Below, piece by piece: positions 20,774 to 63,693 of a stretch of DNA of 64,000 nt. Under the pieces are notes generated by a model. It saw only the letters and a list, made by a program, of their open reading frames with translations, was not told the DNA's origin and searched no databases. How positions within the stretch are numbered: position 1 is the first letter of the stretch; each line of letters starts with the position of its first letter. This DNA is from Rickettsiaceae bacterium (GTDB lineage: Bacteria; Pseudomonadota; Alphaproteobacteria; Rickettsiales; UBA1997): the NCBI GenBank assembly GCA_021323225.1, contig JAJTCH010000001.1, positions 689,120 to 753,119 of the forward strand. The letters run 5' to 3'. The position numbers were made by a program, and so were the translations under genes.

Positions 20774-23491
20774 TTATTCGTAAGTATCAGCCTTTAAAAA
20801 AGGTATAATATCAAAAACCAGCGGCTTTTCACTATCTTCCAGAACCAATATTTTCCCGGCATTGCAGACATTTTGCAAATCAAGAATTATTGCAGAAATG
20901 TCGGATTTGCTATTGATATAAAATTTTTCCAACGGCGTTTTCATTGATAAATTATTATCCGATTTAAATTTGCGGATATTAAAAATCACTTCCTTGGCAA
21001 GCTCCCCAACTTTTATAGAATCTTCGTCCAGAATATAATCTTCCGATTTGCACCAACTTCCTCTTTGATGAATTGAGATTAATTTATTCGGGAAAATCGC
21101 CTGATAAAGCTCTTCAGAAACATGCGGAATGAAAGGCGCGAATAATTTAAGTAAAGCTTCCAGGCAGTGATAAAGCGTAATCAAACCACTTTGCTGGCCC
21201 GCAGCTATTTTTGCTTTTTCTTCCGCAGTTAAATCCAATTGCTTATATTTGTCAGCAGCAAGACCATAAGAACGCACTTTGACAATTTCTAAATAATTGT
21301 CACAAAAATCATTCCAGAAAAAATCCTCCACAGCCTGACGGGCTTTGGCATATTCGAATTCTTCAAATTCTTTTTCTGCCTTATTTATAGTTTGTGTCAG
21401 ACGACTCAAAATCCATAAATCAGCAGCTTCGTTGATGATTCTGGAAGCAACATCCTGTTTAGCAGTGCTTGGTTTATGAGTTAAATCAGCAAAATTCTGG
21501 CTAACAAATTTGGAAGCATTAAATAATTTGGTAATCAATTTTCCACCAATCTTGAACAGCTCCTCACTATAAGCAATATCTGCGCCCAGATTAGATGCTG
21601 AAGCCCAATAACGCACAACATCCGCACCCTTCTCTTCAATCAAAGATTGCGGAGTAATCACATTACCTTTCGATTTACTCATCTTGGTTTTATCCGCCGC
21701 TAAACACCAACCAGAAATCATCAAATTTTTCCATGGGATTTTATCCTCATGCAACATCGCCTTAGCAATAGTATAAAACGCCCAAGTACGAATAATCTCA
21801 TGCGCCTGCGGACGCATATCAGCAGGAAAAAGTTTTTCGTGACGCTGTTTATCAATACAGAAATCTTTGCTAATCCCTTTAGAAGAAAGTTGTGGAGAAA
21901 TTGAAGAAGTGGCCCAGGTGTCCATTACATCGGTTTCTGCATCCACTATCCATTCGATCCCATCCTTATCCGTAACAATTTTTCTACCATCTTTAAATTT
22001 TCCAGTATCAAAATATCCAGTTGGCAAATCTTTCAAAGGATCAACTGGCAGCTGTTCCAACGGAGCAACAATTATTGGAGCTATTGGCTTTTCATTGGCT
22101 TTTTGCTGATCAAATTTTCCACCAACATACCAACTATCTGCTCTTACTTGCTTTTCTTTCTCATCCTTTATTTCTAAATGCCAAACTGGAAATGGCACCC
22201 CAAAATAACGCTGACGAGAAATACACCAATCCCACGCTAAATTATCAATCCATTGCTCGACACGGATTTTCATATAGTCAGGATACCATTTGCATTCATT
22301 GGCTTTTGCTTTGAGCTGTTCTTTCTTATCGAGGATTTTTACGAACCATTGTGGCATTGTTAAAATCTCAATTGGAGCTCCAGAACGCTCGGCACATTTA
22401 ACAGAATGGGTAATTGGATTTGATTTTAGTAAAAGATTTTCACTGATTAAATTTGCAATTACATCTTCTCTTGCTTCTTTGATTTTTTTCCCAATTAAAG
22501 GAACAAAAAACTTTTCATGTTTCTCTTCTGTAGCTTTTATATAATTTTGATCCTTTTCGAATATCTCTTTCAAACTCTTTTCTAGGTAAGCAATTCTTCC
22601 ATCTTCACCGATCATGATTTTCAGATCTAACTCATGTTTCTGCCACCACTTGATATCGGTCTCGTCACCAAAAGTACAGCACATCACCGCACCACTTCCT
22701 TTATCCATCTGCACTAATTCATCAGGAATAATTGGAACTTTAACACCAAACAAAGCAGTGATTGCCTTTTTGCCATGTAAATTTTTATAACGAGAATCAT
22801 CAGGATGAACCATCACAGCAACGCAGGCAGGAAGTAGCTCAGGACGGGTTGTGGCAATAACAATTTCCCCACCACCTTCCACACCAAATTTGATGTCATG
22901 CATCGCACTTGGCATTTCTTTATCTACCAAATCGGCTTGTGATAAAGCAGTTCTATCGACACAATCCCAAAGCACCGGCGCAAATCTTCTTTCAACTAAT
23001 TTTTTATTAAACAAGTCAACAAAACTAGCTTGGGAAATTTTTTGAGATTCCTTGGAAATAGTTTGATATTTCTGGCTCCAATCAACTGAAAGCGCAACTG
23101 TGTTGAATAGATTTTCAAACTCAACCTCTGCAACATCTACAACTTTTTGGCATTCATTAACAAACTCTTCACGCGGCATTTGATTAGCTTTTTTGCCAAT
23201 AGTTTTCTCAACCAATCTTTCAGTCGGCAAACCATTATCATCAAAACCCATCGGATAAAAAACATCAAAGCCCTTCATGCGTTTGAATCTGGCGATGAAA
23301 TCTGCTTGGGTATAGCTAAAAATATGGCCCATATGGAGAAGGCCGGAAACTGTTGGTGGTGGGGTGTCGATTACGAAAGTTTGATTTTTCGGCAAATCAT
23401 TTTGCCATTTGTAAATTTGCTTTTCGGCCCAGAAATTTTGCTGTTTCTTTTCAGTTTGCTGCGGATTGTAGCGATCGGGAAGTTTAGACAT
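20774..23491 (-). CDS. valS: valine--tRNA ligase, type-2 (archaeal/actinobacterial-like) form
   Basis: IDTPPPTVSGLLHMGH...YPMGFDDNGLPTE N-terminus and KMSKSKGN; 905 aa; no long C-terminal coiled coil. Confidence 0.85.
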   Translation of the reverse strand: MSKLPDRYNPQQTEKKQQNFWAEKQIYKWQNDLPKNQTFVIDTPPPTVSGLLHMGHIFSYTQADFIARFKRMKGFDVFYPMGFDDNGLPTERLVEKTIGKKANQMPREEFVNECQKVVDVAEVEFENLFNTVALSVDWSQKYQTISKESQKISQASFVDLFNKKLVERRFAPVLWDCVDRTALSQADLVDKEMPSAMHDIKFGVEGGGEIVIATTRPELLPACVAVMVHPDDSRYKNLHGKKAITALFGVKVPIIPDELVQMDKGSGAVMCCTFGDETDIKWWQKHELDLKIMIGEDGRIAYLEKSLKEIFEKDQNYIKATEEKHEKFFVPLIGKKIKEAREDVIANLISENLLLKSNPITHSVKCAERSGAPIEILTMPQWFVKILDKKEQLKAKANECKWYPDYMKIRVEQWIDNLAWDWCISRQRYFGVPFPVWHLEIKDEKEKQVRADSWYVGGKFDQQKANEKPIAPIIVAPLEQLPVDPLKDLPTGYFDTGKFKDGRKIVTDKDGIEWIVDAETDVMDTWATSSISPQLSSKGISKDFCIDKQRHEKLFPADMRPQAHEIIRTWAFYTIAKAMLHEDKIPWKNLMISGWCLAADKTKMSKSKGNVITPQSLIEEKGADVVRYWASASNLGADIAYSEELFKIGGKLITKLFNASKFVSQNFADLTHKPSTAKQDVASRIINEAADLWILSRLTQTINKAEKEFEEFEYAKARQAVEDFFWNDFCDNYLEIVKVRSYGLAADKYKQLDLTAEEKAKIAAGQQSGLITLYHCLEALLKLFAPFIPHVSEELYQAIFPNKLISIHQRGSWCKSEDYILDEDSIKVGELAKEVIFNIRKFKSDNNLSMKTPLEKFYINSKSDISAIILDLQNVCNAGKILVLEDSEKPLVFDIIPFLKADTYE

Positions 23492-23519
23492 TATTTAGCG
23501 AATAAAGATGAGATGGATA

Positions 23520-23828
23520 TTACCAAACTTCCTTGCCGACTGGCTTGGTTTCAAATTCTTTGGAATTAGGACGATTTTTAGAATTAATCTTTTTGCACAT
23601 TTTTTCTAAGTCCATTTTTTCAACATCCGCCCAGAAATTACTAGAATTATCATCAACATCTTTCTGAATGACCAGTGTATTACTTTTAACAGTAAGGCTA
23701 ACTTTTGATCCTTTTTTTAGTCCAAGTAGATCTAGGACTTTTTTAGGAATTCTAAAGCCAACACTGTTTCCCCAGGAATTAAGTTCGGATTTAATCAGAT
23801 AATGTGTGTTTAAAATTGCTTTGGTCAT
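23520..23828 (-). CDS. mazE: MazE/ChpS-like antitoxin (AbrB/SpoVT fold)
   Basis: WGNSVGFRIPKKVLDLLGLKKGSKV swapped-hairpin motif. The C-terminus ...KPVGKEVW resembles the E. coli MazE ending ...DKEVW (recalled). Confidence 0.8.
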   Translation of the reverse strand: MTKAILNTHYLIKSELNSWGNSVGFRIPKKVLDLLGLKKGSKVSLTVKSNTLVIQKDVDDNSSNFWADVEKMDLEKMCKKINSKNRPNSKEFETKPVGKEVW

Positions 23829-23872
23829 ACTAACTTGTTAATTAAAGATTTTTGTGCTTATACGAAAATTTA

Positions 23873-23968
23873 TATTTCCCTATTTCCCTATTTCCCTATT
23901 TCCCTATTTCCCTATTTCCCTATTTCCCTATTTCCCTATTTCCCTATTTCCCTATTTCCCTATTTCCC
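23873..23968. repeat. perfect tandem array (TATTTCCC)x12; minus strand reads (GGGAAATA)x12
   Basis: Counted directly from the sequence: 12 contiguous identical 8-bp units, 96 bp. Confidence 0.95.
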
Positions 23969-23971
23969 TAT

Positions 23972-24003
23972 ATATATTTATATATTTATATATTTATATA
24001 TTT
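23972..24003. repeat. perfect tandem array (ATATATTT)x4
   Basis: Counted directly; begins 3 nt after the first array. Confidence 0.9.
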
Positions 24004-24091
24004 TGTCAATAATATGTTTATACATGTATATATTTATTGACTAATTTTTCTTTTTAAAAATAATCCAGATTTTTCACCTTATATATTCTAT

Positions 24092-24436
24092 ATGACTGGC
24101 TACAAGGCTCAAAGAGGGGATATTGTCTGGATTGATTTTGATCCACAATCAGGAAGAGAAATTCAAAAAAGAAGGCCAGCTTTAGTTATATCCTCAGGAA
24201 GTTATAATGAAAAATCCCATTTCATTATTGTTTGTCCAGTTACCAGCAAAGTTAAGGGCTATCCTTTTGAAGTAGCGATAAAACAGAAAGGAATAAACGG
24301 ATCAATATTAGCCGATCAAATTAAAAGCTTAGACTGCGTAGCTAGAAAAATTGAGTTTATTGAGAAGTGCAACCAAGAGTCTTTTGATAAGACATTAAAA
24401 ATTATAGCCTTAATACTAGATCTTCACAGAATTTAA
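24092..24436 (+). CDS. mazF: MazF/PemK-family endoribonuclease toxin
   Basis: RGDIVWIDFDPQSGREIQKRRPALVIS and KGYPFEV...LADQIKSLD align by eye with E. coli MazF (GDLIWVDFDP...RPAVVLS...KGYPFEV...LADQVKSI). Confidence 0.85.
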   Translation: MTGYKAQRGDIVWIDFDPQSGREIQKRRPALVISSGSYNEKSHFIIVCPVTSKVKGYPFEVAIKQKGINGSILADQIKSLDCVARKIEFIEKCNQESFDKTLKIIALILDLHRI

Positions 24437-24443
24437 GTAGAAG

Positions 24444-25817
24444 CTACTTCACCACCACTAAATTAGTAGTGAACCTACCGATAGTATGCAAATATAAGGT
24501 TCCATCAACCACGATTGGGCTGTGGAAAATTTGCTGGTCAAGTTTTTTGGTTTGCAAAATTTTGCCGTCCAAAGGCGAGATAACTAGCAATTCACGGTTA
24601 GAATTGGTCATGATTAAATTATCTCCAGCCATGATGATGCCATTATAAATAATTTTGCCGCTTTTGGCTTTTTTGCCTAAATATTTTTTGAGCTGGACAA
24701 ACCATTTAATGCCGCCGGTATTTTTATATAGGCAGATTAGTTGGTTGTCATTATTTACCAAATAAATGAAATCTCCGGCAATCCAGAAATCCGTAATCGA
24801 AGCTAGCTCTTTTTGCCACAAAATTGCGCCGTCGATAATTCTAATTGCCATCATCAATCCGCCATTGCCAATGGCGTAAACCACGTCATTTTTTATAACC
24901 GGAGTGGCATCAACATCATTTAGGATGAAATCAGAATTGTCGATTTTGCTGATATTTAGATCATAAACCCAGCCAACTTCGCCATTCTTTTTGTTTAGAG
25001 CGTAAACTTCACCCGATGAGTAGGAAGAAATCAGGTAATTTTTATAAAGAACTGGGTTGGCCGAACCTAAAATACCGGTTGCCTTTAAAATGCCGGAATG
25101 TGTCCAATTTATCTCGCCGGTTTTAGCATTTAGTGCATAAGTTTTATTGTCATTAGCGATAACAAAAACTTGATTGCCGTCAGAAATTGGTGCGGAAATT
25201 GGTATTGAAGAAATGGTTTTGCGCCAGATGATTCTGCCATCTTTGGCATTAACACATATAACCATATTGTAACCACTGGAGACAAAAACCTGGCCGTTAA
25301 AATAAGAAATTTTGCCGCTGGCTAAGCTTTTGATAAACCATTTATTGATGAGCTTTTTCTTCCAAATGACTTTGTAGGTAGATAAATCCCTGGCATATAA
25401 ATTGCCCTTGGCATCAAGAACATAAATTGCCTTAGCTTCATCAGTTTTTGGTTTTACCAATAAATTTTCATCCGAATTTGGTGAAGAAATAGCAGGCGCA
25501 AAAACTGCCCGGTCATTAAAGCCTGGCCTATAGCCAGCCCAGATTGAATCTAGGGAAGAAATGTGACTGGTAAAAGCAAAATTCTCGCTTCTTTGGTTAT
25601 TGTCATTATTGCTGCCAAACCAGGAATTATTATTGATTTGTTTTGGAAGTGAAATTTTAAGATCGGATAAAGCAGAATCGGCCTTGATTGATTCGATATC
25701 AGCAAAAACCGAAACGGCGTTTTTATCATCAATTTTTTTATCGGAAGCGCAGGAGGTTAGAAAAATTGCGCACAAAATTGCAGATGGAACCAATAAAAAA
25801 TTTCTCATTACTAGCAT
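24444..25817 (-). CDS. bamB: outer-membrane protein assembly factor BamB-like lipoprotein (PQQ-type beta-propeller)
   Basis: Lipobox LTSC. At least six blades with the x-A-x-D/N-x-x-T/D-G-x-x-x-W signature (e.g. NAKDGRIIW, NAKTGEINW, NKKNGEVGW). Confidence 0.7.
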   Translation of the reverse strand: MLVMRNFLLVPSAILCAIFLTSCASDKKIDDKNAVSVFADIESIKADSALSDLKISLPKQINNNSWFGSNNDNNQRSENFAFTSHISSLDSIWAGYRPGFNDRAVFAPAISSPNSDENLLVKPKTDEAKAIYVLDAKGNLYARDLSTYKVIWKKKLINKWFIKSLASGKISYFNGQVFVSSGYNMVICVNAKDGRIIWRKTISSIPISAPISDGNQVFVIANDNKTYALNAKTGEINWTHSGILKATGILGSANPVLYKNYLISSYSSGEVYALNKKNGEVGWVYDLNISKIDNSDFILNDVDATPVIKNDVVYAIGNGGLMMAIRIIDGAILWQKELASITDFWIAGDFIYLVNNDNQLICLYKNTGGIKWFVQLKKYLGKKAKSGKIIYNGIIMAGDNLIMTNSNRELLVISPLDGKILQTKKLDQQIFHSPIVVDGTLYLHTIGRFTTNLVVVK

Positions 25818-62901: not shown

Positions 62902-63693
62902 ATGAACAACAAAAAAATCGGCATCATCTCCAGCTCCAATAAACAGGCAATTGTTAGAAAAAAGCAGCTAATAAAAAAATATAATTTAATCGATCTAGGG
63001 TCAAAAAAATCCGCCAAGCTTTCCGAAATGGATTTAATCATCGCCCTTGGCGGTGACGGGCTGATGCTGCATTTGTTGCATTTGATCCAACAAAACCCGG
63101 TACCAGTTTATGGCATAAATTTCGGCACAATCGGCTTTTTGATGAATTCAGATTGCGGGAATAATAATTTGCTAAATATCATCTCCAAGGCCGAGCCTAG
63201 CGTGTTAAAACCATTAAAAATGACCGCTACCGATACCAATAACAAAAAGCATCAATTATTAGCAATCAACGAAGTTTCTCTTTTAAGACAAACAAACCAG
63301 GCCGCACAAATCAAAATCACCATCAATAATAAAGCCAGAATTGAAAGCCTATCCGCCGACGGCGTTTTAGTTGCCACCTCTGCCGGAAGCACCGCCTACA
63401 ATCTTTCAGTTCGCGGCCCCATAATCCCCTTCGGCACCGAAGTCGTCGCCCTCACCCCCATCAGCCCATTTCGCCCCCGTAACTGGCGCGGCGCCCTACT
63501 TCCCGCTAATTCAAAAATCAAATTCACAATATTAGACCACAAAAAACGCCCAGTCAGCGCCACAGCGGATTATAACGAAGCGAGAAATGTAAAAGAGGTA
63601 GAAATATCGGAAGATCAGAATAAGGAATTTACTATCTTATTTGATGCCAATCATTCGCTGGAAGAGAGGATTATTAGGGAGCAGTTTTTATAA
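62902..63693 (+). CDS. nadK: NAD kinase
   Basis: GGDGLMLH, GINFGTIGFL, ATSAGSTAYNLS. Confidence 0.85.
   Translation: MNNKKIGIISSSNKQAIVRKKQLIKKYNLIDLGSKKSAKLSEMDLIIALGGDGLMLHLLHLIQQNPVPVYGINFGTIGFLMNSDCGNNNLLNIISKAEPSVLKPLKMTATDTNNKKHQLLAINEVSLLRQTNQAAQIKITINNKARIESLSADGVLVATSAGSTAYNLSVRGPIIPFGTEVVALTPISPFRPRNWRGALLPANSKIKFTILDHKKRPVSATADYNEARNVKEVEISEDQNKEFTILFDANHSLEERIIREQFL

Follow-up and report, generated by a model that had tools for sequence, protein, structure and literature searches.

In Haemophilus influenzae, the overlapping divergent promoters of hifA and hifB have a (TA)n repeat between their -10 and -35 elements, which sets the promoter spacing. The (TAAA)n repeat of nadA in Neisseria meningitidis is situated upstream of its promoter, on which it acts via the geometry of a regulator and IHF. 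The pilE G-quadruplex (G4) of Neisseria is a single conserved 16-nt motif with loops of 1-2 nt. In Rickettsiales, with their reduced alphaproteobacterial genomes, intergenic variable-number tandem repeats (VNTRs) used for strain typing consist of short repeats that differ even among close strains and for which no function is known. Type II toxin-antitoxin (TA) systems, for their part, are autoregulated, and the ratio of their toxin and antitoxin products is dosage-sensitive. [quoted passage not shown]

Here, we describe an octanucleotide array in the spacer of a mazE-mazF pair from a Rickettsiaceae bacterium, located in a window of 64 kb (64,000 nucleotides), the window being the whole stretch of DNA that was analysed. 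The array is most likely not a conserved switch, a G-quadruplex device or a replication origin. The head-to-head, valS-linked cassette that carries it, present in at least seven lineages of an uncultured Rickettsiales clade, is, together with its compact palindromic core, the more durable and noteworthy finding.

Results

A head-to-head mazE-mazF cassette next to valS

The divergent MazE/MazF pair named in the original prediction is real, and its two genes stand head to head, 263 bp apart, rather than in a bicistronic, antitoxin-first order (Table 1). Beyond the PF04014 match, MazE has the AbrB/SpoVT fold and matches the MazE structures 7d2n and 1ub4 in the PDB; MazF has the PemK/MazF fold, with PDB MazF matches down to 6.5e-25 beside that to PF02452. 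The products of valS, mazE, mazF and bamB are exact matches to MCE3255139-42. No terminator was predicted in the mazE-valS gap, and the two genes are probably co-transcribed.

Table 1. Coordinates of the genes and spacer features discussed, numbered along the window
Feature	Position	Strand	Remarks
valS	20774-23491	-	28 nt downstream of mazE, same strand
mazE antitoxin, AbrB/MazE fold	23520-23828	-	102 aa; C-terminus ...KEVW; PF04014 32.4 bits (cutoff 24.7)
Unique 44-nt segment, array to mazE ATG	23829-23872	-	unconserved in relatives; weak -10-like TATAAG and TTTAAT
Octamer array	23873-23968		perfect (TATTTCCC)x12; (GGGAAATA)12 on the minus (mazE sense) strand
AT-only continuation of the 8-bp tract	23969-24003		TATATA + (TATTTATA)3 + TATTT, alternatively TAT + (ATATATTT)4, the latter units read at 23972-24003
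Inverted repeat TTTGTCAATAA / TTATTGACTAA	24002-24044		flanks the palindrome; 91% complementary; arms hold two outward-facing -35 boxes
Candidate -35 of the mazE(-valS) promoter	24004-24009	-	TTGACA, in the left inverted-repeat arm
Perfect 12-bp palindrome TATACATGTATA	24019-24030		candidate MazE/MazEF operator; unique in the window
Candidate mazF promoter	24037-24064	+	TTGACT-16-AATAAT (promoter scan)
mazF/PemK endoribonuclease toxin	24092-24436	+	114 aa; PF02452 E = 1.2e-27
bamB	24444-25817	-	convergent with mazF, 7-nt gap

Searches with MazF and MazE homologues, followed by gene-context look-ups, recovered the order valS-mazE-mazF-bamB, with mazF alone facing rightward, in six further lineages, referred to by their loci as L119, the L120 group, L130, L131, L134 and L135. 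Head-to-head orientation is kept in all five of the related lineages in which both genes were read intact. The nearest relatives by ValS (L003 at 72% identity, L006, L008 and L009) lack the cassette and have DUF2659, bamB and valS contiguous, bamB directly preceding valS, with a gap of 28 bp in L003. Because bamB and valS adjoin in these relatives, the mazF-spacer-mazE block of ~920 bp is an insertion between them. The valS gene is now probably dependent on the mazE promoter. Outgroup MazF homologues, with 53-56% identity, are encoded in canonical overlapping operons in which mazE precedes mazF. Across the cassette, MazE is 78-87% identical in the three lineages whose full-length copy was aligned, compared with 71-75% for ValS, 67-75% for BamB and 65-76% for MazF; the cassette is thus old, vertically inherited and under purifying selection.

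In the P0003 lineage, mazE and a valS fragment are separated in contigs L121 (389-2388) and L122 by an ORF of 124 aa and a further 1.3 kb or so; this extra sequence is absent in L120 and L123, and either a rearrangement or an artefact of scaffolding could account for it. The L134 locus has lost the operator along with some 45 codons at the start of mazF, and its MazE is shortened to 91 aa, the module decaying there; the assembly has more than 1.5 million contigs and probably stems from a host genome project.

One in-register octanucleotide tract in the spacer

Direct reading, TRF and a pattern search all returned the same 96 bp of 12 identical, contiguous octamers; the proposed 3 nt and four AT-only octamers follow. 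TRF placed the match at 23873-23971 (period 8, 12.4 copies, 100% matches, score 198); no other array of such kind occurs in the 64 kb, and none there comes near it in strength. A two-unit TATTTCCC probe gave 11 overlapping matches, all at the array, against 0.09 expected from shuffles. The G-rich reading of the mazE sense strand, as predicted, follows from the head-to-head layout, with mazE on the minus and mazF on the plus strand. The repeat had also been called conspicuous in so AT-rich a genome; conspicuous it is, but the AT-richness is moderate, the window having 38% GC.

The two arrays of the original prediction are better described as one. Their letters stand as read, but the periodic units belong to a single tract of TATTTNNN units, in which the CCC-containing and the AT-only units share one register and 5/8 bases (TATTT), and the AT-only units abut TATTTTGTCA of the adjoining core. 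The window tract as a whole reads (TATTTCCC)12 + TATATA + (TATTTATA)3 + TATTTTGTCA. The tract has the look of a single expansion with 8-bp periodicity whose seed was the core edge (TATTTTGTCA). A 17-nt direct repeat, AGATTTTTGTGCTTATA at 23846-23862 and AGATTTTTCACCTTATA at 24067-24083 (82% identical), brackets tract and core, one copy lying just upstream of either start codon; it may be due to chance.

The same octamer recurs in unrelated settings. A metagenome scan with (TATTTCCC)4, in a collection that does not include JGI sample 3300042904, found 34 loci (L085-L118) with arrays of at least four units in unrelated organisms of 24-62% GC, and in none of these 34 do the flanks of the window occur. 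Long TATTTCCC arrays among these contigs reach 13 units in L086, at least 16 in L087, 14 in L089 and at least 12 in L115; L086, L097 and L117 have common flanks, and their contigs end in the array. A scan of viral sequences gave two unrelated three-unit TATTTCCC matches.

A second assembly and the number of units

By exact-protein look-ups, the strain is known from the NCBI MAG and one JGI assembly only (sample 3300042904, L001), in which the locus is split into two contigs. A ValS scan of species-representative genomes gave 80 loci, the best 72% identical, and no second strain of this species. The JGI flanks agree with the window without a mismatch across 3353 nt on the left and 3433 nt on the right (6.8 kb), and the tract is the only disagreement between the two assemblies. 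The left, mazE-side contig ends within the array after 135 nt of TATTTCCC, that is, 16.9 units, hence at least 16.9 against 12 in the window, a difference taken from two assemblies, one of which may be collapsed, rather than from reads. The right contig begins with C(TATTTATA)4 TATTTTGTCA, fully in register; relative to this junction the window has a 2-bp (TT) deletion that yields TATATA + (TATTTATA)3. Because the JGI contig reads in register, the 3 nt that seemed to part two arrays are the trace of a 2-bp deletion in one unit.

Of the predicted perfect x12 array, the perfection of the units holds, but the count is insecure and is best taken as at least 12. Slippage, also suggested beforehand, is plausible: the same-strain assemblies differ in the tract only, and the 8-bp repeat that a sister lineage has of its own at this position varies there by two units. 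This leaves two readings: a population with differing numbers of units (12 versus at least 17), or a window array that has collapsed to a minimum.

The latter would make the count of 12 an assembly product, the real array being longer, with at least 17 units, and a de Bruijn cycle having been traversed minimally, which would also have forced the copies to look identical. We regard this as a serious possibility, if somewhat short of an even chance. The periodic stretch in the window measures exactly 99 nt, a standard k-mer size that is common among assemblers (MEGAHIT/SPAdes defaults), although this could be coincidence. De Bruijn assembly at k = 127 leaves 127 + 8 nt at an unresolved period-8 cycle, and the JGI contig end carries precisely 135 nt of array, unbridged, so that in the underlying reads the array should measure no less than about 134 nt. 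Against collapse, the two assemblies are also set apart by the TT indel where the array meets the AT-only units, which suggests different data or real heterogeneity.

A conserved control core on the mazF side

Spacer alignment of the five lineages with an intact spacer showed that only the mazF-proximal ~90 bp are conserved. Toward mazF, this core runs through TGTCAATA, the palindrome TATACATGTATA, TTATTGACTAA and TTTTAAAAATAAT. Each locus read with an intact spacer core has a single copy of TTTATAYATGTATA, a motif found in 0/120 other loci, and a similar TACAATGTATATA lies upstream of mazE in a canonical Rickettsiales mazEF locus. The perfect palindrome, the candidate operator, is conserved between two -35 boxes; the two boxes with the operator are 27 bp apart, and the array does not touch them.

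The minus-strand -35 box, counted as conserved in five lineages, reads TTGACA in the window, L119, L120 and L131, TTGCAA in L130 and TTGACT in L135. An acceptable -10 follows at 17 bp in L120 and L135, the scan of L120 giving TTGACA-17-TAAATT; in the window this promoter is weak by consensus (TTGACA-16-AAATAT or TTGACA-19-TATATA), and the promoter scan of the window did not call it. The candidate mazF promoter has the same hexamers and spacing in L119 and L130, and in L131 reads TTGACT...GATAAT. Conservation and consensus together suggest that the core is likely a shared MazE operator and bidirectional promoter.

Both arrays lie wholly on the mazE side of the core, where no two lineages have the same segment. 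Here L119 has about four units of its own, (ATTAAAAT)~4 (L119:2860-2895), and L134 about two (170-252), roughly two units fewer; the L120 group has a palindromic insert of ~170 bp (L120:2737-2902) with 73-nt arms, 81% complementary; L130 has (AATTAATTGC)2; and the mazE-proximal spacers of L131 and L135 contain no array. The octamer array of the window is absent from all six related lineages, in which the cassette is intact or nearly so, and the core is separated from the mazE ATG by anything between about 50 and 215 bp, a sign that length is tolerated in this segment. Since the mazE-proximal segment differs from lineage to lineage, the array is lineage-specific and occupies a stretch free in both length and sequence. 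Rotated to TATTAAAA, the unit of L119 agrees with TATTTATA in 6/8 positions, so that an octamer repeat of A and T alone may have existed before the lineages of L119 and the window parted. The insert of the P0003 lineage (L120, also L121-L129) is MITE-like and invariant in seven contigs; three other assemblies break inside it.

This position speaks against the idea that gain or loss of units would re-space and re-phase two divergent promoters, as the mazF promoter, the palindrome and the minus-strand TTGACA are all on the mazF side of the arrays. Being outside the core, the array does not separate the two core promoters; with the core on the mazF side, unit changes would alter the distance from the core to the start of mazE, most likely the length of a leader. 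The array is outside ORFs and not between the core promoter boxes, in a putative leader.

Discussion

We consider the tract a lineage-specific, slippage-generated octanucleotide VNTR, most likely in the 5' leader of mazE-valS, an explanation to which we give a little better than an even chance. Its restriction to one lineage and its place outside the conserved control region make a slippage-prone spacer of variable length the most likely identity. An AT-rich 8-bp proto-repeat at the core edge would have grown by slippage until the tract filled the one unconstrained spacer segment, that between the core and the mazE start codon. Transcription of mazE, and with it valS, would start from the conserved minus-strand TTGACA with a -10 within the AT-only units, such that (GGGAAAUA)n units, if transcribed, would be carried in the 5' leader of the mazE-valS transcript. 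Replication slippage, the presumed cause, would then add or remove units and alter the leader in steps of 8 nt, and the mazF promoter and the operator would stay untouched by the change. Any phenotype would be a graded output of MazE antitoxin and of ValS, by analogy with the hmw1A leader. For a graded effect on output that is under selection there is no evidence; what was observed is the array, its context, the pattern of conservation and the disagreement between assemblies.

A stronger version holds that the array is an evolved contingency locus or rheostat, a selected hypermutable tract that varies the MazE:MazF ratio and the ValS level and so produces heritable, reversible heterogeneity in growth arrest. 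Several features fit such a locus: at least 12 perfect units (at least 16.9 in the second assembly) without a single decayed copy form the kind of perfect short-unit array found at contingency loci, two assemblies of one strain disagree in the tract and nowhere else, the gene directly downstream of the tract belongs to an autoregulated TA pair, hmw1A offers a precedent, and identity over 12 or more units could reflect selection for mutability. However, the array is missing in all six related lineages that retain the cassette, unrelated inserts are tolerated in the same segment, and there is one such array in 64 kb, hence no sign of a genome-wide repertoire of contingency loci. On balance, we find selection for a rheostat unlikely.

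Doubtful to a somewhat greater degree is the geometry of the original prediction, in which mazE has its own proximal promoter, the array lies between that promoter and the operator with the mazF promoter, and each unit re-phases them by 8 bp. Weak candidates for such a promoter do exist, since the 44-nt segment contains -10-like TATAAG (about 30 nt from the mazE ATG) and TTTAAT, L130 has TGGAAA-16-GATAAT near mazE, and in L120 a perfect TATAAT is found at 14 nt from the start codon; the TATAAG of the window and the TATAAT of L120 also speak against the leader placement that we favour. In the window, however, no acceptable -35 accompanies these elements, as it would fall in GGGAAATA units with 0-2/6 matches, and the proximal segments are wholly unconserved among lineages. 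An array of at least 12 units would put more than 160 bp between the operator and a proximal promoter, a distance at which 8-bp phasing would matter little.

A combined possibility, in which a hypermutable, G4-capable leader acts as a stochastic dial on the mazE-valS transcript and sets both the antitoxin:toxin ratio and the ValS level, seems to us quite improbable. If it were true, an obligate intracellular bacterium would be making growth-arrested subpopulations through a contingency locus in a domesticated, head-to-head TA module.

We rate as very improbable a G4 device proper, in which G-rich non-template DNA or a leader RNA of (GGGAAAUA)n, folding into up to three tandem three-tetrad G4s, modulates the transcription, stability or translation of mazE-valS. 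The canonical rule invoked beforehand is indeed satisfied. Twelve G3 tracts with 5-nt loops lie on the mazE sense strand, and minus-strand positions 23878-23968 give nine overlapping G3N1-7 regex matches with at least four G3 runs; this is one of only two canonical sites in 64 kb, the other being at 63449-63478. That second site, on the minus strand, has a G4Hunter score of 1.96 and runs antisense within a 263-aa ORF resembling NAD kinase. Folding of (GGGAAAUA)12 in ViennaRNA with G4 energies predicts three tandem G4s at -16.1 kcal/mol (-5.2 per G4), the RNA having no other structure (0.0). Submitted to a G4 predictor, however, the array proved borderline, with a mean G4Hunter score of 1.125 and a windowed maximum of 1.2, at or under the thresholds of 1.2-1.5 in common use, and scores of 1.0 or more recur at some 40 further places in the window; 5-nt A/T loops, moreover, make for merely moderate G4 stability. 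No G-runs were found in the corresponding spacer segment of L119, L120, L130, L131, L134 or L135, so a G4 is not part of a conserved design, and the quadruplex reading of the array is weak.

A replication origin, suggested by the superficial layout of iteron-like direct repeats beside an AT-only unwinding element, has a vanishingly small probability, given units of 8 bp where iterons have 17-22 bp, neighbours that are mazE, mazF, valS and bamB with no adjacent Rep or DnaA gene, no DnaA box in the spacer or cluster of them nearby, a cumulative GC skew that declines monotonically through the site (20-28 kb) with no switch, and absence of the array in relatives of the same gene order.

Other roles were considered for the tract. 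An N-terminal extension of mazE is excluded by TAG in all three minus-strand frames. On the plus strand, frames at 23835-24044 are open (52-69 aa, LFPYFPIS repeats), but have no start context, homologues or conservation and show no sign of being genes. Triplex or H-DNA was set aside because the strand, although 7/8 purine, is not mirror-symmetric (GGGAAATAGGG versus GGGATAAAGGG). Rfam gave no match on 23300-24600, and a Shine-Dalgarno-like or CsrA-like GGA sponge role for (GGGAAAUA)n was considered as well.

For the lineage-specific VNTR, then, the significance depends on its effect. If the array tunes mazE-valS output, it would be, as far as we are aware, the first known simple-sequence rheostat on a toxin-antitoxin module; a literature search for TA modules controlled by simple-sequence repeats, divergent mazEF and a link between G4s and TA systems found nothing relevant. 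On present evidence, the array is mainly a marker of local hypermutability and a warning that the locus is misassembled or heterogeneous.

Comparison with known systems

Like hmw1A and hmw2A, the locus has a long array of short, non-triplet units between a promoter and a start codon, here in a putative leader; at the hmw genes, variation and its effect on expression are experimental, and the array is conserved across strains and belongs to an adhesin, whereas here it is confined to one lineage and precedes an antitoxin gene. With hifA/hifB it shares a simple-sequence repeat in the spacer of divergent genes, but the repeat has the operator and the two candidate -35 boxes all on the same side. 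The nadA repeat is likewise non-coding and modulates rather than switches the adjacent promoter, through proteins and sites whose counterparts have not been identified in our case. The pilE G4 resembles the array as a G3-tract motif upstream of a gene on the transcribed strand, and differs from the 5-nt A/T loops, the borderline G4Hunter score and the lack of conservation seen here.

The gene pair itself recalls Escherichia coli mazEF (PDB 1UB4) in its AbrB-type MazE, its MazF/PemK toxin and a control region with a TACA(N)TGTATA-like, AT-rich palindrome, and departs from the canonical overlapping operon, in which mazE precedes mazF, by standing head to head. Plasmid and chromosomal iterons have in common with the tract direct repeats beside an AT-rich block, and differ from it in unit length, initiator gene, skew and conservation. 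Compared with the VNTRs of Rickettsiales, an array of at least 12 perfect copies, with an 8-bp unit that has three consecutive G/C in a 38% GC genome, stands out for its length and purity. Even so, the array is best filed as another example of an intergenic or leader VNTR, not as a conserved regulatory invention.
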